Source: Escherichia phage FEC14. Taken from it: a DNA stretch of 64,000 nt. Of this stretch, positions 9,756 to 64,000 are shown piece by piece. The notes beneath the pieces were generated by a model that was not told the origin of the DNA, did no database searches, and saw only the letters and a program-made list of their open reading frames with translations. The stretch is taken from sequence record MG383452, one strand, 5' to 3'. Numbering within the stretch: position 1 is the stretch's first letter; each line of letters begins with the position of its first letter. Position numbers and translations under genes: made by a program.

Positions 9756-9890
9756 GTTGTTCCTCCTTTGGATTCTGTTATAGTTTACCCGAATCCCAAC
9801 AACGAAAAAGCCGAGGCATTAACCTCGGCTTCTCCTTTTAGCCTTGCGCCGCTGCACTGCAGACATGCGCTGGGCCGACGCCTGGTGTGA

Positions 9891-15289: not shown

Positions 15290-15312
15290 GATATAGTTCC
15301 TTCATTTCAAAT

Positions 15313-15334
15313 GGGCGGGGCAAAGATACCCCGC
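15313..15334 (-). terminator. hairpin GGCGGGG-loop-CCCCGCC within a repeated 5'UTR cassette
   Basis: Inverted repeat between the 15342..15848 and 15011..15289 genes; near-identical copy near 15862. Confidence 0.4.
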
Positions 15335-15341
15335 CGTGGGT

Positions 15342-15848
15342 TTATAGGGTAACAAGTGATACGGTAAAAACCATCGTCCCATCTGTTGCCATTTTTCTTG
15401 AAACTGGGAAGACGCGAGGCTGACAGAATATCCATTCTTTCTCCATGGACGCCAAGTCCAGCATATCCATTTCTGATTCATCGCCTTTGTTCACAAATTT
15501 TTCTAGAGAACCAAAGACATTAAGCCCCTCTGGGAGTCCGTTTCGATGTTTATAACAAATGCGGGCAACAGCTTTGGTTCCATACGATTTAGAAAATTGT
15601 TTGGCCACATGCTTCAGTTCGCTGAAACTAAGACAAGAATCCCATGTCTGAAACATGTCTCCTCGTTCAAACATCATCTCCAAACGCGCAACGTCCTCTT
15701 TAGGCAACCCGCGATAAAGTGTGGTCATCTGCGGTTCGCGTAATTCTTGCACCAGACCACGGATGGCAGGGGAAACAGTGCCAGGGCGCATGATGTGGGA
15801 CTTATCATGGACGAGGTAAAATAAATCTTGAATTTGTTGATCGGTCAT
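15342..15848 (-). CDS. hypothetical protein (168 aa), MTDQ N-terminus
   Basis: Minus-strand ORF with the same upstream cassette as 15011..15289. Confidence 0.5.
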   Translation of the reverse strand: MTDQQIQDLFYLVHDKSHIMRPGTVSPAIRGLVQELREPQMTTLYRGLPKEDVARLEMMFERGDMFQTWDSCLSFSELKHVAKQFSKSYGTKAVARICYKHRNGLPEGLNVFGSLEKFVNKGDESEMDMLDLASMEKEWIFCQPRVFPVSRKMATDGTMVFTVSLVTL

Positions 15849-15861
15849 GATGTATTTCCTT

Positions 15862-15884
15862 CATTTCAAATAGGCGGGGTAATC
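15862..15884 (-). terminator. hairpin GGCGGGG-loop-CCCCACC, second copy of the repeated cassette
   Basis: Inverted repeat 3' of the 15908..16147 ORF. Confidence 0.4.
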
Positions 15885-15907
15885 ATACCCCACCCTAAGT
15901 TATAGAA

Positions 15908-28978: not shown

Positions 28979-30481
28979 TTAGAGCGCCACTTTTTTCATT
29001 TTAACAGGGTGGCGCTCCATAAGATAAAATTTATATCTCTCATGAGAATGCCTGAGAGCATGGTTGTAGGAACCGTTGTAACGCAGGTTGTCTACCAGGT
29101 CCCAGATTCGCGCAACATCCTTAGAGGAATGCTGACGCATCAAACGCCCCAATGTCTGTATAACACGGATATAAGATTTGCTGGGATGGGCCAATATCAG
29201 ATGATGGAGTTTTTTGATAGATACGCCCTGTTGCATAGTACCATATGATGCTAACAGTGTTATATCTTCCCCTTCTTCCATAGCAGCCTGAATCTGTTTA
29301 CGAACTTCTGTCTTGACTTCCCCGTTGATGACGAATACGTTTTTCTTGACTGCCGATAGCATTTCATAAACCAACATCATGTGTGCATCGATACGTTCGA
29401 ACATGACTGCGACGTTCCCTTTCAAAGATAGAGCCATTCGGGCTATCAATTCATTGCGGCGTTCGTTAGCAATGAGGAATTCTATTTCCTTTTGATACTC
29501 AGCACCGTGCATTTCAATACAGTCTGCCATAGGATGTATGACTTCAATCATATTAACATTGATGTCTGCCGCATATCCTAGATCGATTAAATCGCGCGCT
29601 GTAATAATTTTATGATATGCGCCAAAGTGAGCAACGACTTGTAACCCTGCGACCTTTGTATTCGCCAGGGTTCCGGTTACTCCCAAACGTTGATCAGCGT
29701 TAATACAGTTGTTCAAGATGTAAGACAATTTATCTGATTTTGATGTATGTACTTCGTCAACGACGATATCTCCAAATTGATGGAACCACTCTTTGGGTTG
29801 GTTCTGGATACCTTGCCAAGTTGAAATAACTATGGGTTTGAAAATCTCTTTCGTTGCCCCTTCGTATATTGTCTGGACGTTCATCAATGGCTTCCATTCT
29901 GTCCCGTGGCTATATTCTTCGAAGTTGTCATACAACTGAGTCACCAAATGAATGGATGGTACAACAATTAACGTCCTCAGATTACTTTCGAGGGCATCTC
30001 TGCGTTGCCTGTAGTAACGCGCCATGATGTACAAAATAAAGGATTTGCCAGCACTCGTGGCAGCTTCGAGGACACATCTGCTTTGGCGTATTGCTGTGGC
30101 AACAGAATCAAATTGATAATCGCGGACAATCGCTTTTTGATATTGTTTGTTTTCGTCTCGGTACACCGCATTCAATGTATCGATGAACGCATGAATTTCT
30201 TCATCCGGAATGTCTTGAATATATTTTAAGGCCGGATCTAATTTGATGGTGTAACCGTTCATCTTACAGAATTTGAACACCTCAAATAACAGGCCGATGT
30301 CGATAAGCCCAGAACTCTTTGTGAACAACCGCACTACGCCGTCCCATTTACTGAACGGATTCGGTTGGAAATTAGGATCTTCAAATTTGAAGTAATCGTT
30401 GAGTTCTTCACGGATATAATCCTCGGCAAGGATCCGCATTCTAACTTCGTTCACTTTGACTATTTGGATCTCAGACATCAC
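28979..30481 (-). CDS. uvsW: UvsW SF2 DNA/RNA helicase
   Basis: ATSAGKS (Walker A), DEVH box, length 500 aa and overall colinearity with T4 UvsW (PTSAGRS, DECH). Confidence 0.85.
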   Translation of the reverse strand: MMSEIQIVKVNEVRMRILAEDYIREELNDYFKFEDPNFQPNPFSKWDGVVRLFTKSSGLIDIGLLFEVFKFCKMNGYTIKLDPALKYIQDIPDEEIHAFIDTLNAVYRDENKQYQKAIVRDYQFDSVATAIRQSRCVLEAATSAGKSFILYIMARYYRQRRDALESNLRTLIVVPSIHLVTQLYDNFEEYSHGTEWKPLMNVQTIYEGATKEIFKPIVISTWQGIQNQPKEWFHQFGDIVVDEVHTSKSDKLSYILNNCINADQRLGVTGTLANTKVAGLQVVAHFGAYHKIITARDLIDLGYAADINVNMIEVIHPMADCIEMHGAEYQKEIEFLIANERRNELIARMALSLKGNVAVMFERIDAHMMLVYEMLSAVKKNVFVINGEVKTEVRKQIQAAMEEGEDITLLASYGTMQQGVSIKKLHHLILAHPSKSYIRVIQTLGRLMRQHSSKDVARIWDLVDNLRYNGSYNHALRHSHERYKFYLMERHPVKMKKVAL

Positions 30482-30507
30482 TAATTTCCCCCAATATTAT
30501 GGAGTAT

Positions 30508-31281
30508 TTAGCGATCCGCCCAGATTCCTTTCTGTTCTTTACCCATTTTGTGATACAGACGGACACGATCAAACATTTTAGAAATAACGTCTTTGCGATC
30601 GAATTCGATTATGGTGGGAACAAGGGCATTTTCGTTGGATATAATATTGATTAAACGCTCTATCTTGACATTAAACATTTGTTGAAACATGACTGAGTAT
30701 AGACACAATTGAATACTATAATCTTCTATCATGCTTCGAGTTTTTAGGGTGTTGGATGTTTTGAAATCGATTATGCTTGGAATTCCTTCGTAAACCCCGA
30801 TGAGGTCAACACGACCAGCAAGACCCAGGACTTCGCTATATAATGGAATCTCTTGTGCATATATCTTGCTCATTTTGTTAAGGTAGGGGAAAACCTGTTT
30901 GAACATAAACACGTATTCCCCTGCAGCTTCCAGAACTTCCTTCATTGGTCTGTTTTTGAGATACAACTCACAAGCCAAATGAAGTTTTTCCCCACGGTCT
31001 GCGCAACGATGTGTTTCTATATCAGCAGCTTCATGTCCCAACTTGTCCCGCCAGGCTTCTAACCATGTGTGGTCACCAGTACGCCCTAACATGGTCGTCA
31101 CTGAAGTTAGTTTGACTCCAGTGGGGGAAACATAGTGACGACCATTTTCGGTAGTTACGCAAGTCAGTTCCTTAAACGGCAAGGAATATTGCTGAAATGT
31201 GTGATGACGATTTTCAAAGTCATTAAGTTTGCGCAAAGCCTGTAGAGAAACCATTACATCCCATCCAAATATTTTCGCCAA
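30508..31281 (-). CDS. putative PD-(D/E)xK nuclease
   Basis: GRVDLIGVYEGIPSIIDFKTS fits D...(D/E)xK catalytic motif; located between uvsW and uvsY. Confidence 0.45.
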   Translation of the reverse strand: MAKIFGWDVMVSLQALRKLNDFENRHHTFQQYSLPFKELTCVTTENGRHYVSPTGVKLTSVTTMLGRTGDHTWLEAWRDKLGHEAADIETHRCADRGEKLHLACELYLKNRPMKEVLEAAGEYVFMFKQVFPYLNKMSKIYAQEIPLYSEVLGLAGRVDLIGVYEGIPSIIDFKTSNTLKTRSMIEDYSIQLCLYSVMFQQMFNVKIERLINIISNENALVPTIIEFDRKDVISKMFDRVRLYHKMGKEQKGIWADR

Positions 31282-33673: not shown

Positions 33674-33704
33674 AAAATACCCCCAATTTTGGGGGTATTT
33701 ATAA

Positions 33705-34723: not shown

Positions 34724-35188
34724 TTACAGATCTTGGCACTGATCGCAATATTCGTCGTATGTGAATGTCTCATCACACAGACCGTCACGCATCATATTGG
34801 CCTTGGCTTCGCCAAATATTTTCAGGGTGATAACGTTGCCGCCTAAATCTTTACGAAGTTCGTTCGGCTTGGTTTCTATGAAGTCGAACACCACAAAGAA
34901 CCCTTCGGTGACATATTTGATGGTTTTGTTGCTCAGCTTACGAATGCCACCGTTCTTTTTGAAGATAGAGGTGCGGAGGTTTTCGAATTCAGCCAGGTTG
35001 TCATCGTGATTCTTGATAGCGTTCAGCATTGCGTCAAGGTCGATTTCAGGACGAAGCATTTTGACCTGATCTTCGCGGTCATAAGAAGTGAAAGATTCTA
35101 TGTTGGTGATGCCCAGAGCGTTCTTAACAAACGCGTCAAATTTGGTGAAATTGTTGAATGCCCAGACGGAGATTTTTACGGTTGTCAT
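34724..35188 (-). CDS. hypothetical protein (154 aa)
   Basis: Minus-strand ORF. Confidence 0.5.
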   Translation of the reverse strand: MTTVKISVWAFNNFTKFDAFVKNALGITNIESFTSYDREDQVKMLRPEIDLDAMLNAIKNHDDNLAEFENLRTSIFKKNGGIRKLSNKTIKYVTEGFFVVFDFIETKPNELRKDLGGNVITLKIFGEAKANMMRDGLCDETFTYDEYCDQCQDL

Positions 35189-35244
35189 GGTGTAGTTCCT
35201 TCATTTCAGAGTCAGTGTTGTGCTGCTTATGGAATGAAGTATAC

Positions 35245-49675: not shown

Positions 49676-49698
49676 GACTTTACCCTCAATTTTGAAGG

Positions 49699-49705
49699 TA
49701 TTTAG
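49699..49705 (-). promoter_or_regulatory. candidate late promoter CTAAATA upstream of gp14-gp17 operon
   Basis: Motif about 25 nt upstream of gp14 ATG. Confidence 0.45.
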
Positions 49706-51342: not shown

Positions 51343-54300
51343 TTATGCCAGAGCAATAAGACGGAAGTCTTTAAATGAAGGAGGAGCAACGCGGTTCCCC
51401 CGTACAAGCGCTCGGACTTTCAGGCCAACAAACGGGTTATTGCTCGCCACAGTCTTGTCATACTCATATTCAAAGAATGTGGAACCGTCGTTAACCAGAG
51501 GCGAAGTTGGGGTGACGTCTTCCCAAGCCACACTATCCATCTCTTGCCCTGCTCGTAGAAGTTTCACCTGCACCTTCATCGAAGACTGAGATGGGAGCAT
51601 TGCACCAAAGAACAACTTCACAGTAGAACACGGATTATCAAATCCGATGTCCTTTGTCACGTATTTGAAGACATCTTCAAATGGATCCACACCGTATGAG
51701 TTGAAGATTACGCTCAGGTCATCGCCATCAATCATTGGAGCAGTGTACACGTTGTTTTCACTACGCGTCATGGTGGCTCGGATTTGGAAATCCCCGACCT
51801 GACGATAGATACCTTCAGTCGGCAATGCCACGTCAGTGTCAGTTTCAAACTCAGCCCAATCAGACATAGAATTTGAAGTGGCATCGCGATAACGGTATTC
51901 CAATTTCAGAATTGAACCTTCCAGAGCCGAATTGGTAACGCTGGCATAGAACATATCAACCAGATAATTGCCCAAGAAAGAAGCATTATCTCCACCGATT
52001 TGTCCATTGCTGTCTGCTGCCGTACCGACGTCAATCTTGAATGAAGTATAGCTCGCATCTGTCACAGTAAACGTTTTGTTAAGTTGTTCAGGAGTAAAGC
52101 CACAACCGCCTGTCAATTCAGAAAGAGTGACATTGTTCCCAGCAACCAAACCATGACCAGGTGCAAACACAGTCACAACAGAAGACCCGCTTACGCAGTT
52201 CAGAGTGTTCAATCCCAACGGACGTTGTTTTGGCCCGAGCTTCGGATCAAATGTTACAACGTTCTGTCCAGCCGCAAAGTTGCAACGATATATGCGGAAT
52301 TTCATATCGGCCATTTGGTTCGGAGACCATGTAGAACCGTTTGAAGAAGTGAAGAACACCCCTGTATACGGTTGTTTGGCGATATATTCGTTGGACAGAA
52401 GGTTTTTCTTGCCCATTTCCGCGATATACGCGTTGTAATCCTGAGTATTCGCCAACAAAACGATAGCAAACTCAGTCGATGCTTGCAGATACACCGGATA
52501 ATCAAAGGTGAACTTCGTACCGCCGGAAGAGTCTGTAGAGATCGTCACTTCAGACGGGTTCAAAGTTTTACGAGTAATGACTGTATGAGAAGGTAAGCCA
52601 TTCTCCATCTCGCGAATTTCCAGAGTGATCGGAACATCACGTGACTTGGTAGAGAAGAATACTTCCACGCCTTCGATATACTCGCCGCCATTCTTAGTCG
52701 CCACCATAAACGATTGGGCAATCGGATCACGCCATTGATCAACAACCACTTCAGAAGTAGAAGTTTCGGTGCGAGTACTAGCAGTGTAACCCAGGACACG
52801 AGTGTTGACAAAGGTCTTTTGAATACCTTGTTTCTTACCGAAAGATTTATGAACAATTTCTGCATTGGTCAGTGTATCATCCGCAGATTTACTGTCAACA
52901 GGGCTATCCGTTAAGCGGAACACGTTGTCACCTGTGTTGAACTTGATTGTATCGTTCTGTGGAACGCGGAATACACCTTTAACAGCACCATTGGCATCAG
53001 TGGTGATTGGGTCACCGAAATTACCACCATTCGGTTTGCAATACAGATTGACGTCACGACCAGAGAAGAACGCATACATACGAGTGAAAGGTCGCAGTCC
53101 AGATGCGTCGAAAGAAATATCGATCTCGCGCATGTATGGGATAACTTGCGTCTCCACAATCTGTTCGCCAGTCATGGTCGTGGTTGTTTTGTCCGTGTAT
53201 GTATATGTGGTGACATCACGGGCAGAAACAGTCGTGCGGTAACGATATCCCCACCACACACCACCAGCACCATGCGGCTCCCAAACACGATCAGAAACAG
53301 AAACAGTCCGCCATGTTCCGTACACTGAACCTTCTTGTACAGTACCACGGGTGTTGATCGTTTCATTGATAATACGCGGTGCAACATAATAGTTTTCGAA
53401 CCAGTAGTCTGTGGTCGGGTTAATCTTCAAGAAACCTTCCCAATTGAATACTGCATACGGGTTAACGTTGATCGTCGTCGTCGCATATTCTTGGTTCACT
53501 GAGATTTCAGGCGTGTAATTGCAAACCACCATCCCATCCATCACTTTGTTCCAGCCAACAGGAGTCATGTCAACAACGTTCTGTTGTACAAACGGGCGTA
53601 GACGTCCGTTTTCGGTATCGATAGAACCCATCCAATCTTCAGACAAGTCATCAATCAACCGGAAGTCTTTGAACGGATCAGCTGCAATACCATTTTTGAA
53701 ACGAGGATTACCCGTGATGGGGTCAAACACTTGCTGTGTCATCGCTGAAGATTCCAGCTGTGACAGAGAGGTATAGTATTCAACATTGGAAATACGGGTT
53801 TCCAGTTTACCGATATCGCGCATTGTATAACGACGATTATCAATAGTTCGAATTTGGATATCATCAATATTCGGTGTATACGGCGGGATCAACAATTCAT
53901 ACAAACGCATGGCGTTCGCTGGGATTGCTGGAGAAGCCAGATTATTAGAACTGATGCCTCGAGCCACACCAAACACGCCGTTGTCTGCCAGATAAATCGC
54001 GTCGATACGCGGCAGATAATATTCTGTGTCCAGAATAACTGCAGTGTTTGGACGTACCATATCTGTGTCAGAAGTTCCGTTGGTGATTTTCGGACGGAAA
54101 TCTAAACTATCTGCCAGGCCGTACACCGCGCCTGATGTAGAAGATGTATAATTCGGGATATCTTTATAATCCATCGAAGTATACGAATCAGCAGAGAAGA
54201 AATCACCGGAACTGTGGGCGAAGTATTGATACACCACTGTATACGTCCCTGAGATTGCTCCAGCGCTGGATAACAAGTTAGACTTGTAATACCCTGCATC

Positions 54301-56181
54301 ACGCTGTCCGCCATCTAGGACGAAGCTGGAGGTCACGTCTGCGCCAGTATCGTTTTTGACCGATACCAATTTCCAACCATCGTGATTCGCCAAAGGACGG
54401 CTGGTCTGCGATGTGAACGTCACTGTTTCAGTTGTTTCAGTGATGGTCTTCGTTTTAATTGTGGCCGTGGTACGAATCATCAGCGCCAGCAAATTGATTG
54501 ACTGGTTAGCATTACCACTACCCAGAGAAATCTGCAGCGCCGAACCGACCGGAGAACCAGTCAAAGACAAAGAGCCAGAGATATCGAACTGCGCTTCCGA
54601 ACCATCTGATTTCGCTGCAGAGTACAACGAAAATTCTGGGGAAAAACTATATCCCAGCGGGGCTGAAATAGAACCAGAACCGCTGCTGTCTAGCGTCACC
54701 TTATAAGTTCTGAGGACTGTGTAGTTGATATCCACGGAACCTGTTGGCGCTAATGTTTTAACACCGAAGACCGGAAGAGAGAAGATCAGGTCTACCATAG
54801 AACTCTGGTTAAACTGGTTGGATTCCAGTTCAGCAGAAAACATGGTGATCCCACTTTCTTCATAAGACACTTTGGTGATAGTGGACGCGTCCCCAGTCAC
54901 AACTAAATCACGCATATACAGGCGGAATTCAGTTGAATTGCGTTCAGCGGATATACACAACGCCGTGGCTTGAGTAGCGCCGGATGCGTTCAATAACTTG
55001 TATCGCACAGTGCGAGATATTACTGGAACACCTTTGGAGTTCTTGGTGACCAGATAATTCCCTGTAGCAACTGCGACAGGCGTGTTATTCAGGACATCGG
55101 TATCCCGTGCCTTGTCAACGATCACCAACTCTTCCCCGACGTTTTCGATACGACGACCGCGAACATAGGAAATACCTGGTTTCATTACAGACACGAATTT
55201 ACTTTCGTCGCCGCCATCAGCAGCATTGAATACACCACCGTTGTTATTGACTTTCAGGTGTTCGCGGATGTCGATCTGATGCGTTGAAACGTTGTAATCG
55301 CCGTTGGTTTCATACGTCCGTTGAGCCAACGTGTCTTCCAGAATATTATAGGTGGACTGAGTCACCATAGACTGGATTTTACCATCACGAACTTTGGCCA
55401 GTTCAACAAAGTCTTCAACCACAGCATCATAATCAAATCGAGATAAGACCAGATCTATTCGAAGACGATGAGCGCCTGGGGCTTTGGAGTTAATCGTTCC
55501 CTGAGCATTTGAATAAAGGGATTCGTCTTCAGATTCAGTCACGATGGTTTCAGTGACTTTAAATCCGACGCGGTGGGAAGACGTGTTCGAAGTTTTATCA
55601 ACGATAAGAGTCGCGTCATCAACGTCTAGGAACATCCCACGAATGAAGTAAACGCCTTTCGTCATACGAGCAACGATAGAACCAGTTACAGCAGCCGCGA
55701 TCCCATAACCAATACGAATGAAATTATCATTCACGTCGTAAGTCTGGAAATACAGATTATCGTTAACATGGAATCCGTCAGCATTACCCGCTTCAGTCAT
55801 CTCAAGGATGGCCAACATCGTATCAGGAGCAGACAGATCACGTTCAAGAGACAACACACGCGCTTTGGCGTTATTGTCTTTCCCCAAAACGTAGAGTTCA
55901 GAAATACCTTCCAGATCGGTGAATTCAGTACCACCCGCCAAAGTGAATTTCAAAGAGACTGCGGCATTGGTGATCGTCAGACCGCCAGGGATAACCATAG
56001 AACCATCTTTGAACAGATGGTTGCCCAGTTTTTCAATTTGATCCTGAAGAATAGTCTGCATCTGGTTCAGTTCGCGAGTCTGAACCTTGATAGGCATCGG
56101 ACGAAAAAGAATCCGTGAAAAACGTTTCCCAGGATTCCAGTCATCCCAATACGGGCGACGGTTTAAATTTGTAGATTGCAT
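51343..56181 (-). CDS. giant virion structural protein (1612 aa), probable tail fibre / baseplate-associated
   Basis: Longest ORF in the window, preceded by CTAAATA motif and GGAG RBS, sits within the tailspike/neck block; N-terminal RPYWDDWNPGKRFSRILFRP motif vaguely recalled from phage structural proteins. Confidence 0.65.
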   Translation of the reverse strand: MQSTNLNRRPYWDDWNPGKRFSRILFRPMPIKVQTRELNQMQTILQDQIEKLGNHLFKDGSMVIPGGLTITNAAVSLKFTLAGGTEFTDLEGISELYVLGKDNNAKARVLSLERDLSAPDTMLAILEMTEAGNADGFHVNDNLYFQTYDVNDNFIRIGYGIAAAVTGSIVARMTKGVYFIRGMFLDVDDATLIVDKTSNTSSHRVGFKVTETIVTESEDESLYSNAQGTINSKAPGAHRLRIDLVLSRFDYDAVVEDFVELAKVRDGKIQSMVTQSTYNILEDTLAQRTYETNGDYNVSTHQIDIREHLKVNNNGGVFNAADGGDESKFVSVMKPGISYVRGRRIENVGEELVIVDKARDTDVLNNTPVAVATGNYLVTKNSKGVPVISRTVRYKLLNASGATQATALCISAERNSTEFRLYMRDLVVTGDASTITKVSYEESGITMFSAELESNQFNQSSMVDLIFSLPVFGVKTLAPTGSVDINYTVLRTYKVTLDSSGSGSISAPLGYSFSPEFSLYSAAKSDGSEAQFDISGSLSLTGSPVGSALQISLGSGNANQSINLLALMIRTTATIKTKTITETTETVTFTSQTSRPLANHDGWKLVSVKNDTGADVTSSFVLDGGQRDAGYYKSNLLSSAGAISGTYTVVYQYFAHSSGDFFSADSYTSMDYKDIPNYTSSTSGAVYGLADSLDFRPKITNGTSDTDMVRPNTAVILDTEYYLPRIDAIYLADNGVFGVARGISSNNLASPAIPANAMRLYELLIPPYTPNIDDIQIRTIDNRRYTMRDIGKLETRISNVEYYTSLSQLESSAMTQQVFDPITGNPRFKNGIAADPFKDFRLIDDLSEDWMGSIDTENGRLRPFVQQNVVDMTPVGWNKVMDGMVVCNYTPEISVNQEYATTTINVNPYAVFNWEGFLKINPTTDYWFENYYVAPRIINETINTRGTVQEGSVYGTWRTVSVSDRVWEPHGAGGVWWGYRYRTTVSARDVTTYTYTDKTTTTMTGEQIVETQVIPYMREIDISFDASGLRPFTRMYAFFSGRDVNLYCKPNGGNFGDPITTDANGAVKGVFRVPQNDTIKFNTGDNVFRLTDSPVDSKSADDTLTNAEIVHKSFGKKQGIQKTFVNTRVLGYTASTRTETSTSEVVVDQWRDPIAQSFMVATKNGGEYIEGVEVFFSTKSRDVPITLEIREMENGLPSHTVITRKTLNPSEVTISTDSSGGTKFTFDYPVYLQASTEFAIVLLANTQDYNAYIAEMGKKNLLSNEYIAKQPYTGVFFTSSNGSTWSPNQMADMKFRIYRCNFAAGQNVVTFDPKLGPKQRPLGLNTLNCVSGSSVVTVFAPGHGLVAGNNVTLSELTGGCGFTPEQLNKTFTVTDASYTSFKIDVGTAADSNGQIGGDNASFLGNYLVDMFYASVTNSALEGSILKLEYRYRDATSNSMSDWAEFETDTDVALPTEGIYRQVGDFQIRATMTRSENNVYTAPMIDGDDLSVIFNSYGVDPFEDVFKYVTKDIGFDNPCSTVKLFFGAMLPSQSSMKVQVKLLRAGQEMDSVAWEDVTPTSPLVNDGSTFFEYEYDKTVASNNPFVGLKVRALVRGNRVAPPSFKDFRLIALA

Positions 56182-56214
56182 TTTGATGCTCCATCTAGTG
56201 CCATTTTATAGAGA

Positions 56215-56221
56215 TATTTAG
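56215..56221 (-). promoter_or_regulatory. candidate late promoter CTAAATA upstream of the 1612-aa gene
   Basis: Motif about 35 nt upstream of ATG. Confidence 0.45.
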
Positions 56222-56320
56222 TATACAGCCAACAAACAGATAGAAATAAAAACCCAGTTCCTCCACCTGATAGTTTTGAACTTCCAGTTCCTGTCAGGTT
56301 AACGAGACATAGCAAAAGAA

Positions 56321-56339
56321 AGCCCCCTTATTGGGGGCT
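56321..56339 (-). terminator. hairpin AGCCCCC-TTATT-GGGGGCT followed by TTCTTTTGC on the minus strand
   Basis: 3' of the 744-aa tailspike gene. Confidence 0.5.
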
Positions 56340-56345
56340 TGTATT

Positions 56346-58580
56346 TTAGATTGTTACGTTAGCAATACTTTCCGTGAACCAACCAGATGGAGTCTTAACT
56401 AAAGTAACCATCATCTTAGTTGCATAGTCTACCCTCAAAGCAGTAAAGGCTCCTGCCACATTAAAGTGGAATCTGTCCGTTACAGTAGGCAATGTTGTAT
56501 CAGCACGTTTAAGCACTACCCCACCACCAGATGAATCAGAGATAACTGTCACACGCTGGCCCATATATCCACCGCTAAACCCACTAAGGGTAAGAGTAAT
56601 ACCGGAACCAGTGACTAATACAATATCAACACCATCTACAGGAATAGATGCTAGGGTCTGAGTTGTAGTGTACTTATCAACAGCATTCTGACTAACCCCC
56701 AATTGCTGAATCTTAACTGGAGTACCGTTGCGGTTGAAGTTAATTAGGTTGGAGTCTTTGTTTACGTAAAAAGAGTAGTTAGGAATAGCGCCGGATGCGA
56801 GCATTGCTGTTTCATCTACTGACTCTAATTCTCGCAACTCTTTGTGATAGCGGTTGTAGTTTCTGTTCTGGATATACTTAGCATTCCATTGAGTAAACCA
56901 AATACCACCAAAACCACCTGATTCAGATGTAGAGATTACATAACCATCATCACCACCAGGCATTGATGCGATGTACCCAACAGAATCACTTGTGTTGATA
57001 TCCCCAGTAGGAGCTAACCCCCAAGTAACTAGGTCACGACTAATCCATACTCGGTAGTTAGTACGACCAATAGAATTATCACCTACACCATTAGCACAAG
57101 TAAACGCCCAAGTAAGAACACCATTAACCCCATCAAAAATAGGAACCAGGTCACCCTTACTATCCGATGTAACTAAATCAGATAAGTGCTGCCAGTTCTT
57201 AAACTGATGATCACTGATATAGAATTTCTGAAGCCCTTTAAGGTCTGTGGTGTGGTAAGCACGAGAGTTCATCACCATACGACCATCCGGCAAAAGGTTC
57301 AGTCCGACTTCCCCACCAGATTCTTCGGAACTAAGTACGTAGTCCATGCTGTACTTAATGTCATACTTCATGATGGTAAGGAAAGAATCAACCCGTGAAC
57401 CAGTGACGGTAGACACAATCATTGCCATCTTACCATCCGGTAAAACAACTGGTTTAGTTGGTGAAGTCCAGATAAAATCTGCCGTTGCTGGCTTAAGGGT
57501 AGCAGTAATGTTAGCTGGTGTACGCCATATAGTAGGAGCTTCCGCATCACAGTAGGTAACATATATCTGGGATGATGTATTAGGGTCATTGCCTGGCTGT
57601 GAGTATCCCCAACCCAACTGGCCTTTGCAGGAAGTAAAGTAACAGTATACCCGACCATCTACTGGGTTATACACAGCAGCAATCTCACCGTTCTGATACG
57701 TAGCCCCAAAGTTAGCTACCACTACCTTAGCCGACCAAGACCACCCATTATCAATGGAGTATTTCATAACGATATTACATTGCTGATCTGGAGTAGCACC
57801 AATATCTGTATTGTTACCATGCAACTCATTACAGAAAATCATCAGAGTACCATCACCAGTTTTAACAATCTGGGGCATACGGTAGAAGACGGTATCCGTA
57901 GGGTTAAGTTTATCAATAGCAACGTCTGGAGCAGACCATGCTAAGTTTTTACCAGAGTGACGCTGAACGCCACGGATATGGTGATAAACATTAGGAATAA
58001 CGGTTCTCACCATATTCTCTTGGTTCTGCCATGCAGCTTCTTCGGCAAATTCTTCTTCAATGGTTTTGCCATTAGCCAGTACTACCATGGATGCACCACT
58101 GGTACTGTTAAGCTGTTCCTTCAGATAAGAAGCACCCAAGCCAATCCAATTATCATCACTGGATGGTAAAGAGTTCTGAGGTACAACTTTAGGTAATGAA
58201 CCATTCCAACGATACTGGATACCATTGTGGGTAAGTACATCATTCTTTGTGGATACTATTGCACCAGTAGTAAAAGAACCAGGTAATACATTATATTCAT
58301 TGCGTTGGGAAGCTAGTTCGCCCAGGTCTACAGAACCCCCAGAGTGTACAAGCAGAGCACTGGCGCTAAGGCTAATAGCCGTGGTTCCTGCTGGAATATC
58401 TACAGGCAAGGAATACGCTCTCTGTGTTTCCTTGTCATAAATAACCTTATATCCAGACAAGGACTGTCCTGATTTCGCATAAACGACTTCCGACTTTTTA
58501 CACCCAAATTTACGAGCAATACTGTCTTTGTTCGATTCTTTTGAAGTAGAACCTTTTGGTTGAGCAAATTGCGGATTCAT
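56346..58580 (-). CDS. tailspike protein with sialidase-like (BNR/Asp-box) beta-propeller domain
   Basis: Asp-box YSIDNGWSWS and FRIP-like YRMP read in translation; N-terminal about 150 aa shared with the 710-aa tailspike. Confidence 0.7.
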   Translation of the reverse strand: MNPQFAQPKGSTSKESNKDSIARKFGCKKSEVVYAKSGQSLSGYKVIYDKETQRAYSLPVDIPAGTTAISLSASALLVHSGGSVDLGELASQRNEYNVLPGSFTTGAIVSTKNDVLTHNGIQYRWNGSLPKVVPQNSLPSSDDNWIGLGASYLKEQLNSTSGASMVVLANGKTIEEEFAEEAAWQNQENMVRTVIPNVYHHIRGVQRHSGKNLAWSAPDVAIDKLNPTDTVFYRMPQIVKTGDGTLMIFCNELHGNNTDIGATPDQQCNIVMKYSIDNGWSWSAKVVVANFGATYQNGEIAAVYNPVDGRVYCYFTSCKGQLGWGYSQPGNDPNTSSQIYVTYCDAEAPTIWRTPANITATLKPATADFIWTSPTKPVVLPDGKMAMIVSTVTGSRVDSFLTIMKYDIKYSMDYVLSSEESGGEVGLNLLPDGRMVMNSRAYHTTDLKGLQKFYISDHQFKNWQHLSDLVTSDSKGDLVPIFDGVNGVLTWAFTCANGVGDNSIGRTNYRVWISRDLVTWGLAPTGDINTSDSVGYIASMPGGDDGYVISTSESGGFGGIWFTQWNAKYIQNRNYNRYHKELRELESVDETAMLASGAIPNYSFYVNKDSNLINFNRNGTPVKIQQLGVSQNAVDKYTTTQTLASIPVDGVDIVLVTGSGITLTLSGFSGGYMGQRVTVISDSSGGGVVLKRADTTLPTVTDRFHFNVAGAFTALRVDYATKMMVTLVKTPSGWFTESIANVTI

Positions 58581-58611
58581 AATAAGAATCTCCTGTTTTT
58601 CTCTAGTAAAT

Positions 58612-58630
58612 ACCCTCCGAAGAGGGGTAT
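58612..58630 (-). terminator. hairpin ACCCTC-CGAAGA-GGGGT between the 926-aa and 744-aa tailspike genes
   Basis: Inverted repeat immediately 3' of the 926-aa gene; AGGAGA RBS of the next gene follows. Confidence 0.4.
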
Positions 58631-58634
58631 ATTT

Positions 58635-61415
58635 TTAAATAGAAGAATCCAATATACGGTAACTAATTAACTTAGTAGGGTCTACAGGATTAATCAGGTT
58701 GTAGTACCGTGAAGCTACATAATCATTCTCAGAAGAGAACATACCAACATACACTTTAGCACCTACACCAGAACAGGCATCCCCACCAGCATTGCTATCC
58801 GAGAAGAATGTTAATGAAGAAGTTAATCCGAATATAGAATTAAATGGTACAGCTAAATAAGCGCCTCGGAATGACCGTCTGATTCTCTTACCCGTCTGAA
58901 TATTAAGAATACTCCACCAGAAATATCCAGGTTTAGCACCAATAGCTATATGATATGGCACACCACTTTGTAGTTTAAGGTCGTTAGGTAAATCCCCAGA
59001 TAAAATTTGGGTTGTACCATCGCCCCCCAATAGCAAAGCAATTGTTTGTTTTCCAGAAGCGTCTATAACTAATTGAAGATGAAGACTGTTGGATGTATCA
59101 CTAAACCCTGAACCAATGGCCATGAAGTTAAATACTTCAGCTCCAGATATGGTGGGTACTACAACAGCAGCCATGGTAATACCTTCTGGACCTGCTGTTC
59201 TTGAATACAGTAATTTATCTTTGTTGGCTTGTGATAGTCTCAGACCATTTACTTGCCCTACAGAAGATGGGACACTTACATAAACAGGTGTAGTGCTAAC
59301 ACCATCAAATGTAGGGGTCTCGTTCATGGTTTGCAAACCAGTCTTGGAATAATTAACCAATCCGTTAATGCTCAGGTCGGAATTGGTGGGGTTGATAATA
59401 TTGTTATCACCAATAAAGTTAATGCCCATATAACCAGTCTCAACCACACCATTAATGGTGACACTACAATCATTAGACAGGAACTGAAAATTGCCTGCAC
59501 TAGAGTTAGCACCTGAACCACTATTCGCGGCATAATTGAGTCCTACGAATCCGTTGATAACTGCATCACTTTTGTTAAATACGATGTTGTAGAAAGTGTT
59601 GTTAGCATTGATGCCGTTACGATTGGTGTTCAATCCGTTCATGGAAATTGAATATGACTCGCTAATCTCAATACCATTCCCGCCACAATCTTGTACCTCA
59701 ATACCATTAATAACCATATTCTGGCTGTTATTAATAGTAATGCCTGGAAACTGTCCTACTGTACCATAAGGTTGCCAGTTAGCCCAAATGAATTTACCGC
59801 CAATAATACGACCATTACCACAACCATCAAGAACTAGACATTGTTTACCGCAGGTATTAACCTGGATATTTGTCCAAGTCCAATCAGTAGTAGCACAACG
59901 GACACCCACCTGATTGATGTGGTTGACTAAAAGAGAATCTGTAGTAACACTAAAGTTACCACTATCAATATTTAACCCATATTCATCAAAACCTGCTATA
60001 TGGACCTTAGAAATACACAAGTCCCGTCTTGGGTCTGCGGTAGTGTGGAACGGATAATCGGCTGAGAGACCTGAAGGAGTTTCTACATAGATACCTGTTG
60101 TGCCCGCAGTAAATGACGTGCCTTGTTGTGCACCTGTGCCATATACCCCAAAGGCGTCTAATACAATAAGGGAGCATGTATCTTTTATGGTAATACAATT
60201 CCCAGTAGCAGAAGGCAACTGATGCAACCTTGAGTAATGTAATCCAGACCCATAAATAGACGACGTATTATATTTTAACTGGATATTGCTAACGTAATGT
60301 ACACCAGTTAATTGTGTGGCCTTACCACTATCCACACAAGATTGTACTGGAATAGTATCATCATTAGAACCACCCAAAGCACCAAACATGAATGGGTTAA
60401 CTCTATCAGCATTAACACGTAACCATGCTGCGCCGCCAACAGTTTTGATCACAGTACCGTTATTATCAGTCTTTCCTGTACCATCAATTAACGCACGGAA
60501 TACCCCTCCACCAAGAAGAGTACCCGCAGTGTGTTGCTTAAGAATAATGCGTTGTCCATCCATAGTGGGTTCAGTATTCCTGAGATCAGCAACAGAATGG
60601 CATTCTCCAATATACTTGGCACCATCATTGCGCCCCAGAGTGTTTATCACATTAATAAATGAATCTTCTAAAGGCAACAAATCAACCTGCACATCACCTG
60701 GGTTGTAATTCAATTTCCCAGCAGATACAGAAGAAATGACAGAACCATCAGGAATGGTTGGTAAACCATAACTGGTTTGCGTCGCTATATCATAAACAAC
60801 TTTCTTCCCATCCAACAAAGATATGGTGTCCGTACTAACGATGACTTCAGAGTCTTTTACATTAGCAGAACGGGCGATTTCTTGAATACTTCGGTCAAAC
60901 GCCGGACTGATATTCGGTTGTTTAACAGACATTTCAGCGACTACCCAAACGCCTGCAGTCAGTGCAGTTTGCAAAGACACTTTCCCTGTCGTGCTGTTAT
61001 AGGAATATTCAATTTCGGGTGTTTTGTACTCGCCACCGATATAAAGAGATTGGACACCATAGGATGTGAAATCAGGAGTGAACTCGGTTTCACCCCCTAC
61101 GGCTTGAAATTTGTATATGCGGATACCTTTGGCTGTATCTTCTGGCGAAAGAATTTTATCGAATAAGCAATACACAACATCGCCTTTGGACAATGCGCGC
61201 CCGAGATTCAACGTATTTCCTTCGATTTCAAAGTTGTCTAACGGAACTTGCATACCACCGTTGATTGTGACTACGCCAGTGACAGGATAGAACGGCAAGG
61301 AAAGGAAAGTTTCTCCACCAACATTTGATTTATACGTGAAAGGAATCTGGTGGGGAGCTGTGATTACGCCGCCGAATAATTCTTCTACATTTCTGGTCAT
61401 TTGAAAATACCCCAT
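58635..61415 (-). CDS. tailspike protein with parallel beta-helix (depolymerase-like) domain (926 aa)
   Basis: Repetitive Asn/Gly/Ile-rich rungs (e.g. NGIEISESYSISMNGLNTNRNGINANN) typical of right-handed beta-helices; distinct N-terminus from neighbours. Confidence 0.7.
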   Translation of the reverse strand: MGYFQMTRNVEELFGGVITAPHQIPFTYKSNVGGETFLSLPFYPVTGVVTINGGMQVPLDNFEIEGNTLNLGRALSKGDVVYCLFDKILSPEDTAKGIRIYKFQAVGGETEFTPDFTSYGVQSLYIGGEYKTPEIEYSYNSTTGKVSLQTALTAGVWVVAEMSVKQPNISPAFDRSIQEIARSANVKDSEVIVSTDTISLLDGKKVVYDIATQTSYGLPTIPDGSVISSVSAGKLNYNPGDVQVDLLPLEDSFINVINTLGRNDGAKYIGECHSVADLRNTEPTMDGQRIILKQHTAGTLLGGGVFRALIDGTGKTDNNGTVIKTVGGAAWLRVNADRVNPFMFGALGGSNDDTIPVQSCVDSGKATQLTGVHYVSNIQLKYNTSSIYGSGLHYSRLHQLPSATGNCITIKDTCSLIVLDAFGVYGTGAQQGTSFTAGTTGIYVETPSGLSADYPFHTTADPRRDLCISKVHIAGFDEYGLNIDSGNFSVTTDSLLVNHINQVGVRCATTDWTWTNIQVNTCGKQCLVLDGCGNGRIIGGKFIWANWQPYGTVGQFPGITINNSQNMVINGIEVQDCGGNGIEISESYSISMNGLNTNRNGINANNTFYNIVFNKSDAVINGFVGLNYAANSGSGANSSAGNFQFLSNDCSVTINGVVETGYMGINFIGDNNIINPTNSDLSINGLVNYSKTGLQTMNETPTFDGVSTTPVYVSVPSSVGQVNGLRLSQANKDKLLYSRTAGPEGITMAAVVVPTISGAEVFNFMAIGSGFSDTSNSLHLQLVIDASGKQTIALLLGGDGTTQILSGDLPNDLKLQSGVPYHIAIGAKPGYFWWSILNIQTGKRIRRSFRGAYLAVPFNSIFGLTSSLTFFSDSNAGGDACSGVGAKVYVGMFSSENDYVASRYYNLINPVDPTKLISYRILDSSI

Positions 61416-61434
61416 AAAGGATTTGCCAATATGG

Positions 61435-61441
61435 GGTATTT
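61435..61441 (-). promoter_or_regulatory. candidate late promoter CTAAATACCCCAT upstream of the 926-aa tailspike
   Basis: Part of an about 50-nt module nearly identical to that upstream of the 710-aa tailspike. Confidence 0.45.
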
Positions 61442-61505
61442 AGGCTGAACTAATAAAATTTATAATAAGATCCCCCCGCTTTTGGCGAGGAGGGATGGTT
61501 GTTAA

Positions 61506-63638
61506 TCATATCAATCCGTAAATGACATTGTGTATTGCGATACCACCAACAATAGAGGAAACATTGAAATTAATTTCAGCTTTGTAAGCTCCTGGCGGAA
61601 CGCAATCCACCAAAGCATAAAAGTTGAACGTGTTTCCTACTGGGATGTTATATCCTATGGAATCCGCGACAGCATTTCCTTGCTGGTCCAGGAATCTAAT
61701 TGATGCCAGGGTGGTGGTTGTATTTTTAGCCCAAAAACCAAGTTGAAAATAACGCCCAGGCTCACAGTCAATGATTGTCTGGGTGAAATTAGCCGCTGCA
61801 CCCACTGATGGTACGGATAAGACAAAAGAAGTTGAAAACATTAAATCATTAGGGACATCATTTCCTACAGTAGCGGTGACAACGCCGGATCCAGTTTGTG
61901 ACAGCGCCCAGTTAGATATATTATTAAACTGTCCTGAACCGTTACTAATACTGTTTATATGAGGGCTTACAATGCATCCTAAATCCCAGTTACTTGTGAT
62001 AAATCCTGCGCGTGGATAGCAACCTCTAGACATTACTTTTTTACTTAATCCGCCTATCAACTGCCTTGTGGCAAATCCAGTAGCAATCGTTGTATTCCCA
62101 TAGAGTGGTAGCGAACAATTATTTAGAATAACAACCCCATCCCCGTTGTTTACAATAGGTACTGTAGAATAATCATTTGGCAACAGTATCGTCGAATCAC
62201 TGATGCTTAATCGTGAACTACCATCCACAGTAAACCCAACGAAACTCTGACCTGGTTGATACTCAATGTTACCGTTTGTGAAAACCATAGTTGCGTTATC
62301 AGATAACGCGACAACAGGGTCAAAATATCCTGATTTTTTACCTGCTGGCAGAGAGCAGCTATCGAATATAAATTGACCATTAACAAACGTGAAAGGTCCA
62401 CCGTTGTCAACCATCCAACAATGATTAAATTTTATAACCTCACCGGAATTCGCTGGTGAATTGAAAATAACAGAATTTGTAAAACTTCTGGACAACGTAC
62501 ATTTATCAAAAAGAATACGATATGCATTATCAAGAAACTCAATTCCGGCAGTTGAGATAAACCCGCAATTAGATATTCTTAACTCTGAGACTTCTCCACT
62601 GGTAGAACCACCGATCGCCAATTTCCTGGTCCCTTTTCCAACAAATGACACTCCAGTCATTAACGCAGTTGCGTTAATTACATCTCTATTGGTGTAATCC
62701 GTGTCTGTATTAACAATGGTTAGATAGTAGCCGCCCGTTGCAGATGCAGATTCTATTAGAGTACATTTATTTTTTCCAATAAGTGCACCTTTTGCTATAT
62801 CAAAAATAATCGGTGTTGTTATCTCACCAGAAACAGGGACTACACAGTCAAATCCGACGGCATTTATTTTATTGATGAATATAGCCAAATCTCCGGTTCC
62901 TGTATAACCAGCTTCGTACACATCCACCACACCGTTGAATAATTTCCTTTTCCAAACGACACCATTGCCTTGGAAAGTAACGATATTATCTACCACAGTA
63001 TCTGAGTTAACAGCCACCATAACACCGCCACCAAGATTAAACCCGTCAACATACGAATCAAGAATTATAGAATCACCAATTAATCCTGCTATTGATGATA
63101 ATTCAGAAACTGATGATACGGTTCCTATATAAGATAAGCCATTCGGTTTATTTAAATTACTTTTCAGAGATGCAACACCAACACTCAACCATGCACCTAA
63201 ACCAACGCCACCAGATGTTTCAGGTGTTGAGCCAGCATCGACAGTTTTAGGAAGTGAACCATCCCATCGATATTTTTTATCATCGTGAACAAGAAGTTCA
63301 TTTTTCACATTAATGATATGGCCGAAATTAAAAGAACCAGGTAAAGTCACATATTCTTCGCGGCTTACTGCTAATTCCCCAAGGTCAACAGAGCCAGCGG
63401 AATGAGTGAGGATGGCTTGTTCGTTCAGGCTTATCGCAGTCGTTCCTGAAACAATACCCGAAGGAAGAGAATAAGCCCGTTGGGTAGACTCATCATAAAT
63501 TACTTTAAATCCACCGAGATCAATACCGACAGTGAAATAAATGACTTCGTCTTCTTTGACACCGAAATTTCGAGCGATAGATTGTTTGTTAACTTCTATG
63601 GAAGTGGAGCCGCGTGGTTGATTGAATTGAGAAATCAT
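61506..63638 (-). CDS. tailspike protein with beta-helix domain (710 aa), sharing N-terminal anchor domain with the 744-aa tailspike
   Basis: N-terminal about 150 aa about 60 percent identical to the 744-aa protein (QPRGSTS...KVIYDESTQRAYSLP...GSVDLGEL...YRWDGSLPK). Confidence 0.7.
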   Translation of the reverse strand: MISQFNQPRGSTSIEVNKQSIARNFGVKEDEVIYFTVGIDLGGFKVIYDESTQRAYSLPSGIVSGTTAISLNEQAILTHSAGSVDLGELAVSREEYVTLPGSFNFGHIINVKNELLVHDDKKYRWDGSLPKTVDAGSTPETSGGVGLGAWLSVGVASLKSNLNKPNGLSYIGTVSSVSELSSIAGLIGDSIILDSYVDGFNLGGGVMVAVNSDTVVDNIVTFQGNGVVWKRKLFNGVVDVYEAGYTGTGDLAIFINKINAVGFDCVVPVSGEITTPIIFDIAKGALIGKNKCTLIESASATGGYYLTIVNTDTDYTNRDVINATALMTGVSFVGKGTRKLAIGGSTSGEVSELRISNCGFISTAGIEFLDNAYRILFDKCTLSRSFTNSVIFNSPANSGEVIKFNHCWMVDNGGPFTFVNGQFIFDSCSLPAGKKSGYFDPVVALSDNATMVFTNGNIEYQPGQSFVGFTVDGSSRLSISDSTILLPNDYSTVPIVNNGDGVVILNNCSLPLYGNTTIATGFATRQLIGGLSKKVMSRGCYPRAGFITSNWDLGCIVSPHINSISNGSGQFNNISNWALSQTGSGVVTATVGNDVPNDLMFSTSFVLSVPSVGAAANFTQTIIDCEPGRYFQLGFWAKNTTTTLASIRFLDQQGNAVADSIGYNIPVGNTFNFYALVDCVPPGAYKAEINFNVSSIVGGIAIHNVIYGLI

Positions 63639-63670
63639 GATAATACCCCATAAAGGATGACCAATATGGG

Positions 63671-63677
63671 GTATTTA
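63671..63677 (-). promoter_or_regulatory. candidate late promoter CTAAATACCCCAT upstream of the 710-aa tailspike
   Basis: Second copy of the shared upstream module. Confidence 0.45.
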
Positions 63678-63708
63678 GTCTGAACTAATCAAATTTATGA
63701 ACAAAGGT

Positions 63709-63744
63709 ATAATAAGAACCCCGCCGAAGCGGGGTTCTTATTAT
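63709..63744 (-). terminator. extended palindrome ATAATAAGAACCCCGC-CGAA-GCGGGGTTCTTATTAT
   Basis: Third copy of the AACCCCGCCGAAGCGGGGTT hairpin, here with longer palindromic arms; 3' of a truncated upstream gene. Confidence 0.55.
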
Positions 63745-64000
63745 GATTCTATAATTTTATAGGATAGAGAAACATTACCATCAACTGGAGCAGCATCGAT
63801 TCCTGTCGGTCTTGTTGCGGTCTTAACCATGACACCAGCGATAGTTTGTCCAGCAGTTGCACCAATATACTTAGAGCAATTTACTGAATAAAATAATTGC
63901 CTGTATTCAATATTACCTTGAACCTCACTTAGAACAACATAGGCCGCACCAGCATTAACTGAACAGTTTGTGTGTATGTTTACCTTCTCCCCTGTGGACA
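63742..64000 (-). CDS. 3' end of a further minus-strand gene, probably another tailspike/tail fibre (5' part lies beyond the window)
   Basis: Hand translation of the open frame ending ...APVDGNVSLSYKIIES; C-terminus loosely resembles that of the 926-aa tailspike. Confidence 0.4.

Follow-up and report, generated by a model that had tools for sequence, protein, structure and literature searches.

The tailspike locus and its repeated leader module

We analysed a 64,000-nucleotide stretch of DNA from Escherichia phage FEC14 (record MG383452), referred to below as the window, and concentrate on a short module that stands in near-identical form in front of two of its tailspike genes, TSP3 and TSP2. 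The window belongs to a CBA120/PhaxI-like Kuttervirus (Ackermannviridae); its last 8 kb is 95-99% identical to Kuttervirus phages, including BPS3, ECML-4, BRM 13312, CBA120 and PhaxI, with no single record covering more than 75% of that stretch. The genes follow one another in the order TSP4 (3′ end), TSP3, TSP2, TSP1 and VrlC, all on the minus strand, and each copy of the module sits directly 3′ of the intrinsic terminator of the upstream gene (Table 1). A sequence-only reading of the window had reported about 50 nt of near-identity upstream of a 926-aa and a 710-aa tailspike gene whose proteins begin differently, and had taken this for a promoter and leader that might serve as a recombination site for receptor-binding genes. 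Alignment of the two upstream regions bears out the near-identity and the differing protein starts (MTRNVEE... vs MISQFNQ...), places genes and module on the minus strand, and lengthens the shared sequence to ~60 nt, or ~100 nt with the terminator. The 710-aa gene stands as described, and the larger one encodes 921 aa from ATG 61400. Its 926-aa open reading frame begins at an in-frame ATG at 61415, inside the hairpin described below; because the match to the full-length structure of CBA120 TSP2 (6w4q) covers residues 1-921, ATG 61400 is the real start, and its MTRNVEE is kept in five genera. The main structural feature of the module, an inverted repeat linking promoter and ribosome site, was absent from the earlier reading.

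The two copies (61403-61463 and 63639-63698) share ~60 nt at ~90% identity up to the start codons, with a single 1-nt indel in the hairpin loop. Read on the minus strand up to the ATG, the shared sequence is (C/T)ATAAATTT(G/T)ATTAGTTCAG(A/C)CTAAATACCCCATATTGG(TCA/CAAA)TCCTTTATGGGGTATT. The repeat search returned a 38-nt ungapped block of 95% identity (61426-61463 vs 63661-63698), and the 18-mer CCAATATGGGGTATTTAG is found exactly twice in the 64 kb, at 61426 and 63661, for a chance expectation of 0.05. The likeness stops at the start codons; in the other direction it resumes further upstream, across a 12-nt indel, in the CTTATTATA tail of both terminators. Positions 61465-61463 mark the limit of homology to the orthologous TSP2 blocks of other Kutterviruses. 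Within the window the module is present just twice, and an Rfam scan of 56000-64000 gave sub-threshold chance matches on the terminator only, hence no known RNA family.

Table 1 Features of the tailspike locus, with two further leaders of like design
Feature	Position	Strand	Evidence or detail
Module copy 1, 5′ of TSP3, CATAAATTTGATTAGTTCAGA-CTAAATACCCCATATTGGTCATCCTTTATGGGGTATTATC	63639-63698	minus	alignment, repeat search
CTAAATA box, copy 1 (part of CTAAATACCCC)	63672-63678	minus	motif search
Hairpin, copy 1	63642-63675	minus	5′ arm AATACCCCATA 63665-63675; 3′ arm TATGGGGTATT 63642-63652
Module copy 2, 5′ of TSP2, TTATAAATTTTATTAGTTCAGC-CTAAATACCCCATATTGGCAAATCCTTTATGGGGTATTTTCAA	61403-61465	minus	alignment, repeat search
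CTAAATA box, copy 2	61437-61443	minus	motif search
Hairpin, copy 2	61405-61441	minus	5′ arm AAATACCCCATA 61430-61441; 3′ arm TATGGGGTATTT 61405-61416
Non-homologous leader of like design, TATAAATACCCCCAAAATTGGGGGTATTTT then ATG, 5′ of a 242-aa gene	33674-33703	minus	-21.7 kcal/mol, z -4.8
Non-homologous leader of like design, CTAAATACCTTCAAAATTGAGGGTAAAGTC then ATG, 5′ of the head-closure gene	49676-49705	minus	-14.3 kcal/mol, z -4.6
TSP4 gene, 3′ end (partial)	63741-64000	minus	open frame and stop TAA at 63741-63743
TSP4 intrinsic terminator, 'type i'	63709-63744	minus	16-bp stem AACCCCGCTTCGGCGGGGTT then T-rich tail; terminator scan, repeat family D1
TSP3 gene, 710 aa	61506-63638	minus	PDB 5w6h (TSP4) matches residues 19-710, 5w6f (TSP3) 1-165
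TSP3 intrinsic terminator, 'type ii', CTCCTCGCCAAAAGCGGGGGG	61472-61492	minus	terminator scan
TSP2 gene, 921 aa from ATG 61400, O157-type tailspike of CBA120	58635-61400	minus	PDB 6w4q match 1-921
TSP1 gene	56346-58580	minus	
VrlC gene	51343-56181	minus	

The module carries a late-promoter-like box

Both copies contain, without a mismatch, the intergenic sequence CTAAATACCCC (minus strand, 61433-61443 and 63668-63678). It is the published CTAAATAcCcc motif of Viunalikevirus, which resembles a T4 late promoter and which was reportedly first described by Adriaenssens et al. in 2012 (Arch Virol). PMC7283392 counts CTAAATAcCcc among the two 'unique regulatory motifs' that it quotes for the ViI-like phages (Viunalikevirus), giving it as an 11-mer without a partner arm. 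CTAAATA agrees with the T4-type box TATAAATA at 6/8 positions (positions 3-8) and does not vary between copies or genera. Homologues of gp55, gp33 and gp45 are encoded by CBA120, ViI and AG3 (PMC3184105, PMC3121705), and the late promoter of ViI-like phages was called unidentified in 2011 (PMC3184105).

The sequence aCTAAATA also lies 5′ of gp6, TSP4, TSP3, TSP2 and VrlC in Kuttervirus, Agtrevirus, Limestonevirus, Taipeivirus and Nezavisimistyvirus, and in the window 5′ of the tail sheath, scaffold and head-closure genes, a placement that fits a late promoter. Between lineages the upstream flanks are unrelated right up to CTAAATA, so that there is no -35 element, and a sigma-70 promoter scan called none at either copy, its total count being below the shuffled expectation. 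Across 18 leader families, positions 1-4 after TAAATA are pyrimidine-rich, purines are enriched at positions 6-7 and position 7 is a purine in 15/18, which suggests initiation ~6-7 nt after the box; in T4 late promoters the TATA-type box stands about one helical turn before the start site (PMC2988020). The family-wide motif, together with the short leader and a Shine-Dalgarno sequence, supports the earlier description of the module as promoter and leader.

A further CTAAATA box, at 30478-30511 (minus), has a weaker 5-bp Shine-Dalgarno-pairing stem (CUCCA/UGGGG) and stands 5′ of a gene for a DNA helicase. A replication/recombination helicase expressed late would be consistent with this, T4 uvsW being a comparable case.

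A hairpin pairs the promoter box with the ribosome site

The end of the promoter box together with CCCCATA constitutes the 5′ arm of an 11-12 bp hairpin, of which the 3′ arm TATGGGGTATT is the exact complement. The 5′ arm has the box at its base and extends to 7 nt past TAAATA, where the base pattern of the 18 families suggests initiation. The 3′ arm, TATGGGGTATTT in copy 2, carries the sole Shine-Dalgarno-like sequence of the leader, GGGGU, 6-8 nt 5′ of the ATG (61409-61413 in copy 2, 63645-63649 in copy 1). The 'cCcc' of the published motif is thus the complement of the Shine-Dalgarno GGGG; this element and its partner arm are present only in a subset of CTAAATA promoters. The loops are gene-specific, TTGGTCATCCTT before TSP3 and TTGGCAAATCCTT before TSP2, and the RNA folds at -21.7 kcal/mol in copy 1 and -20.7 kcal/mol in copy 2 (z -3.9 in each).

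The folds lie at -19 to -22 kcal/mol (z -3.9 to -5.7), and leaders of this design are not limited to the module. Two unrelated genes of the window are preceded by arms CCCCCAA/TTGGGGG (at 33701) and CCTTCAA/TTGAGGG (at 49704), and the stem of the latter covaries with a different Shine-Dalgarno sequence, GAGGG. The Kuttervirus TSP4 leader follows the like design with another sequence, CCCCTAGATG...CATTTAGGGG; the TSP4 leader of Taipeivirus and Erwinia phage Bue1 reads CCCCTAG...CTAGGGG, and two further Bue1 genes share the hairpin design.

In an alignment of 12 leaders, the 11 pairs of the stem are paired at 96.2% vs 85.6% in shuffles (0/500), with a covariation score of 0.342 vs 0.132 in shuffles (0/500) and at most 0.055 with slid 3′ partners; four pairs show compensatory changes. 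Over 21 leaders, cognate duplexes between 5′ arm and Shine-Dalgarno sequence are stronger than non-cognate ones (0/20,000 permutations reached the observed mean, p < 5e-5). Wobble pairs are G.U throughout, and only on the sense RNA, which points to an RNA helix rather than a DNA operator. Judged from these comparisons, the data support a helix that is selected and not accidental.

We then compared the energy required to open the segment from the Shine-Dalgarno sequence to the AUG. In read-through RNA, opening costs 17.6 kcal/mol in copy 2 and 18.6 kcal/mol in copy 1; with a start 6-8 nt after TAAATA the cost in copy 2 is 5.6 kcal/mol. Hairpin leaders as a group require 14-20 kcal/mol in read-through RNA and 4-7 kcal/mol with that start, vs 2-5 kcal/mol either way for late leaders without a hairpin. 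The mean unpaired probability of the Shine-Dalgarno sequence was uninformative, being dominated by weak alternative pairings, and opening energies were used in its place.

The module is conserved across the Ackermannviridae

The module was found in 270 phage records, mostly in two copies each and at one to two places per genome; the carriers include Klebsiella, Dickeya, Erwinia, Serratia and Shigella phages. Its presence spans five Ackermannviridae genera, with likeness reaching well beyond the promoter heptamer; the circumstances that would have counted against the earlier reading, absence from relatives and likeness limited to the heptamer, do not apply. The 37-nt core is 86-97% identical across the five genera, vs 53-75% for the first 450 nt of TSP2 coding DNA and ~45% for the upstream flank, and a 20-nt upstream extension, ATAAATTTnATTAGTTCAG, is present only in Kuttervirus. 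The module always lies at a tailspike gene boundary, 5′ of a TSP2-type (M[TSA]R[NP]VE...) or TSP3-type (MISQF/MNPQF) gene, the sole exception in the set being Bue1 gp151, annotated as a tail fibre protein, with a variant module. When IMG/VR was scanned with the 14-mer CTAAATACCCCATA, 109/120 loci among the matches listed were chance hits without a partner arm; the 11 genuine loci among them confirm the picture and add no new kind of context.

Some records depart from this layout in small ways. ECML-4 (9457-10055 of its locus) has an extra 91-aa open reading frame and a ~320 nt spacer between TSP3 and TSP2, with unrelated sequence right up to gcCTAAATA at both module copies. In two Taipeivirus loci (L006, L009), small open reading frames of 49-93 aa follow each tailspike gene. 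The module is also found at 97% in OR844942.1 (Enterococcus phage Efm 3-10) and in one 'Pseudomonas' phage record, two entries that are probably mislabelled or contaminated.

Recombination at and around the module

The TSP3 gene of the window is chimeric: its N-terminus is of TSP3 type to ~aa 78, and the rest corresponds to the receptor-binding part of CBA120/PhaxI TSP4 (5w6h, E = 0). By blastn, 61402-63404 is 92.5-92.7% identical to the 3′ part of the CBA120/pSK20 TSP4 gene with its TSP4-to-TSP3 spacer, and the same span is 99-100% identical to PhaxI TSP4 with its TSP4-to-TSP2 spacer up to ~63280, and 78% over the last 200 nt. The type ii terminator, also placed 3′ of TSP4 in CBA120, pSK20 and PhaxI, moves with that receptor-binding cassette. 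Similarly, 63711-64000, the last ~290 nt of TSP4 with its terminator, is 95.9% identical to the 3′ end of CBA120 TSP1 (blastn), so the same receptor-binding end occupies slot 4 here and slot 1 in CBA120.

Terminators and loops of the module have been reassorted. In CBA120/pSK20 the type ii terminator and its tail precede a TSP3-type loop, in the window and PhaxI a TSP2-type loop; the type i terminator is likewise found with either loop, and all four combinations therefore exist, a four-gamete pattern. As the module is the only homology common to both junctions, at least one crossover inside it is implied. PhaxI has no TSP3, and a CBA120-like genome that underwent a module x module deletion would have the layout it shows. 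In the Kuttervirus SeF6a, the TSP2 N-terminus is 90% Agtrevirus-like from exactly CTAAATA and only 73% Kuttervirus-like, with a Kuttervirus-like upstream flank; two marker bases flanking the 3′ arm of the hairpin place the joint in that arm. Two recombination joints, that of the window/PhaxI vs CBA120 and that of SeF6a, thus map inside the module. Both Agtrevirus copies carry the derived loop CAAATCCTCT, which suggests concerted evolution.

Most exchanges took another path. According to Sorensen et al. (2021), a TD1 'GTTAVSL' motif explains the movement of receptor-binding modules among TSP1, TSP3 and TSP4 (PMC8432352); in that paper the words 'intergenic' and 'promoter' occur 0 times and no intergenic sequence is discussed. 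The left joint of the window's TSP3 chimera (~63280-63404, codons ~78-120) is of this kind, lying just 3′ of the motif (here GTTAISL, ~aa 65-71). Sliding identity along the window is 100% BPS3-like to ~60650 and then 99-100% PhaxI-like through the module to ~63280, so the latest exchange spanned the interval between the TD1 ends of TSP3 and TSP2 and took the module along within the transferred DNA, and the module is ruled out as the crossover of that exchange. We also considered that the four phages without TSP3 (PhaxI, maane, SE14 and SeF6a) might all be module-mediated deletions. For maane and SE14 this is out: their TSP4 carries an S117-type TSP3 3′ end, which makes them three-tailspike genomes arising from a TD1 x TD1 deletion. 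Shuffling has also reached the receptor-binding part of TSP1, a gene that lacks the module; there the joint lies at the terminator. For most exchanges the long conserved stretch comprising the module and the N-terminal domain of the next gene suffices, and the module is an occasional crossover point, not the main one. The proposal of a recombination site is thus supported in part: two joints lie within the module, but the latest exchange in the window and the deletions in maane and SE14 went through TD1.

TD1 differs from the module in being a coding-sequence site on the 5′ side of the cassette, and the module is possibly its 3′-side counterpart. A more ambitious proposal would make the module a self-contained, family-wide cassette that insulates each tailspike gene, limits its expression to its own late promoter and acts as the preferred 3′ crossover, pairing with the 5′ TD1 motif, so that cassettes move between slots and genera, a late counterpart of the promoter-early stem-loops (PeSLs) of T4-type phages; we regard this broader proposal as speculative and rather unlikely.

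A model for the module, and its alternatives

We favour, as somewhat the more probable interpretation, that the module is an expression cassette in which a late promoter, a hairpin masking the ribosome site and a Shine-Dalgarno sequence are combined, with the occasional crossover inside it as a by-product. Each of these tailspike genes would carry its own compact cassette, placed in Kuttervirus after the intrinsic terminator of the upstream gene, with a T4-type late promoter box, (a/c)CTAAATA, as its core. RNA entering from upstream would fold into the hairpin of about -20 kcal/mol and hide the ribosome site, and the hairpin might also help to stop the polymerase. A late (gp55-type) polymerase would start ~6-7 nt after TAAATA and yield RNA that lacks the 5′ arm and is translatable. 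Production of each tailspike would thereby be confined to the late phase and to its own promoter, by the logic known from T4 genes e, soc, 49 and I-TevI. Strong constraint on the 37-nt core would leave an island of near-identity between diverged or unrelated flanks, and thereby permit occasional homologous crossovers inside it, which would move receptor-binding cassettes between tailspike slots and between genera. Sequence anatomy, conservation, helix covariation and the placement of the recombination joints are direct observations, whereas promoter activity, the start site and the masking of translation are inferred.

Several observations weigh against this model. The sequence after the box, CCCCAT in both copies, is atypical: in T4 late promoters an AT-rich segment follows the TATA box (PMC2988020), as it follows the box in some of the leaders here that lack a hairpin. 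Literature searches gave no mapped transcription start site for any Ackermannviridae late gene, and RNA beginning at or before the first C after TAAATA would keep a 7-12 bp stem in the mature mRNA, costing 11-14 kcal/mol to open in CCCC-type leaders and 6.9 in the 49704 leader. The TSP2/TSP3-type stem is itself invariant across genera, so that the covariation comes from TSP4-type and unrelated leaders. The hairpin is missing from many CTAAATA leaders (sheath, scaffold, VrlC, some TSP1) and is hence dispensable for late expression. In Kuttervirus both copies lie behind strong terminators, perhaps leaving little read-through RNA to silence, and the genes upstream are late genes too, unlike the classic T4 cases.

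The hairpin might instead belong to the mature late mRNA, with transcription starting upstream, for instance at the TATAAATT / CATAAATT box at 61457-64 / 63692-99, and act as a translational attenuator, a 5′ stabiliser or a regulatory-protein site that sets tailspike stoichiometry. In copy 2 the T4-like box TATAAATT, with 7/8 matches, indeed stands 14 nt upstream of CTAAATA, the loop TTGGnnATCCTT is kept across genera beyond what a simple spacer would need, and the CCCC that follows the box contrasts with the AT-rich start regions of T4. That upstream box, however, reads CATAAATT or TATAAAAT elsewhere and is missing from ECML-4 and the four other genera, in contrast to the invariant CTAAATA, and translation of very abundant virion proteins would be hampered by a 17-20 kcal/mol stem covering their sole Shine-Dalgarno sequence; we think this reading unlikely. 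A role chiefly as intrinsic terminator or insulator of the upstream gene, with the overlap of the ribosome site secondary, would be compatible with the expression cassette and is a minority possibility in our view. In genera other than Kuttervirus, and at TSP4 in every genus, the upstream gene stops 2-20 nt ahead of CTAAATA and no separate terminator intervenes, and the stems have G+C cores followed by U-rich runs (GGGGUAUUUU), the copy at 33701 looking like a textbook terminator. Yet TSP2/TSP3-type loops are 12-13 nt long, their U-tract is interrupted and the terminator scan did not call them, a strong separate terminator stands just upstream in Kuttervirus, and the 3′ arm tracks the Shine-Dalgarno sequence, being GAGGG in one leader and GGGG in the others. 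At these places, where a separate terminator is missing, termination or insulation may be a further role of the hairpin, both in genera other than Kuttervirus and at TSP4.

It is very improbable that the palindrome acts in DNA as the operator of a dimeric DNA-binding regulator: the inverted repeat is perfect over 11-12 bp and overlaps the promoter, but the spacing of its arms varies from 4 to 16 nt, the arms differ between leaders with pairing kept, and wherever the pairing is not Watson-Crick the sense strand has G.U, which on the opposite strand would give a C.A mismatch. A reading of the module as an element resembling a miniature inverted-repeat transposable element (MITE) was considered and set aside; the link of the one MITE paper to these genes is limited to a citation of the tailspike paper among its references. 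The remaining alternative is the one raised at the outset, a dedicated shuffling cassette akin to PeSLs, whose near-identity would be maintained because it is a portable homology patch for swapping, deleting or importing receptor-binding genes. All four combinations of upstream type (i/ii) and loop (TSP2/TSP3) exist, which requires crossover within ~30 nt of core; to this can be added the PhaxI layout as the product of a TSP3 deletion, the inter-genus joint of SeF6a, the derived loop common to both Agtrevirus copies, the extension ATAAATTTnATTAGTTCAG that Kuttervirus alone carries and carries in both slots, and the PeSL precedent (PMC2839356, PMC4122927). Set against these, the constraint from promoter, hairpin and Shine-Dalgarno sequence fully explains the conservation of the core, and the unrelated genes at 33701 and 49704 have the like design without shuffling. 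The window's latest exchange crossed at the TD1 ends, ~63280-63400 and ~60650, with the module inside the segment; TD1 likewise served in maane and SE14; TSP1 was shuffled with no module at all; and there are just two or three copies per genome. A dedicated cassette of this type therefore seems to us a doubtful proposition.

Relation to known systems

The expression-cassette model has its closest counterparts in T4 genes e, soc, 49 and I-TevI, whose inhibitory helix is avoided by transcripts from the late promoter alone (PMC3014915, PMC2988022). In T4 e, soc, 49, I-TevI/II/III and segB, and in Aeh1 mobE, a late promoter of the TATAAATA type is situated in the DNA for the 5′ strand of a helix that buries the Shine-Dalgarno sequence and start codon (PMC3014915, PMC2988022). 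The module shares with these hairpins the order of box, 6-7 nt and end of the 5′ arm, and the placement of the Shine-Dalgarno sequence, here GGGGU, in a stable helix. It departs from them in its box, CTAAATA and not TATAAATA, and in the C-run that replaces the AT-rich segment after it. The T4 cases are late genes in early or middle units; here the genes are virion tailspikes behind late genes (behind terminators in Kuttervirus), and the arrangement is predicted from sequence.

PeSLs are small repeated cassettes of promoter and stem-loop at which indels and replacements between related T4-type phages begin and end, so that they work as exchange points joining sequences with no other relationship (PMC2839356, PMC4122927). 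As with PeSLs, joints lie inside the module, and in Kuttervirus stem-loop terminators stand directly upstream of the promoter. PeSLs, however, have sigma-70-type early promoters, occur in many copies scattered through hyperplastic regions of non-essential genes, and form mini-circles. The module is of late type without a sigma-70 match, is present in two or three copies and flanks essential receptor-binding genes, and most exchanges here proceed through protein-coding homology (TD1). The module thus resembles the T4 e/soc hairpins in its working and PeSLs in an evolutionary side-effect, but lacks defining features of the latter, a sigma-70 promoter and many copies.

Ackermannviridae phages are used for biocontrol, and their four tailspikes set host range. 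If the model holds, the CTAAATAcCcc motif gains a mechanistic reading, its C-run existing to pair with the ribosome site; the T4 logic of a late promoter inside an inhibitory hairpin would extend to a distant family and to virion genes; and the TD1 motif proposed for tailspike swapping would have a candidate 3′ counterpart. Current understanding is not overturned by this. As the 37-nt core is nearly invariant in five genera, it would likewise offer a practical universal primer site or homology arm for typing or engineering tailspike cassettes.

TSP1 and other repeats in the window

The TSP1 leader differs from the module and has a canonical AGGAG site. The TSP2 terminator ATACCCCTCTTCGGAGGGTAT (58586-58640, minus, 5′ of TSP1) has ATACCCC...GGGTAT arms as in the promoter hairpins, without a CTAAATA box; with no box there and a long AGGAG leader, TSP1 may depend on read-through from the TSP2 promoter. 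In Taipeivirus, aCTAAATA is present before the genes equivalent to TSP1. The N-terminal parts of TSP1 and TSP3 are paralogous in DNA (58179-58585 vs 63172-63590, ~65-70%), and TSP1 of the window begins MNPQ, as Taipeivirus and Agtrevirus tailspikes do; CBA120 TSP1 begins MNEM.

The window contains another repeated leader, at 15278-15342 and 15837-15901 (minus), in which a terminator-like GC hairpin is followed by TTTGAAATGAAGGAACTAnAnCATGAC before two small genes 559 nt apart. A third, partial copy lies at 35183-35208, and this family is distinct from the tailspike module.

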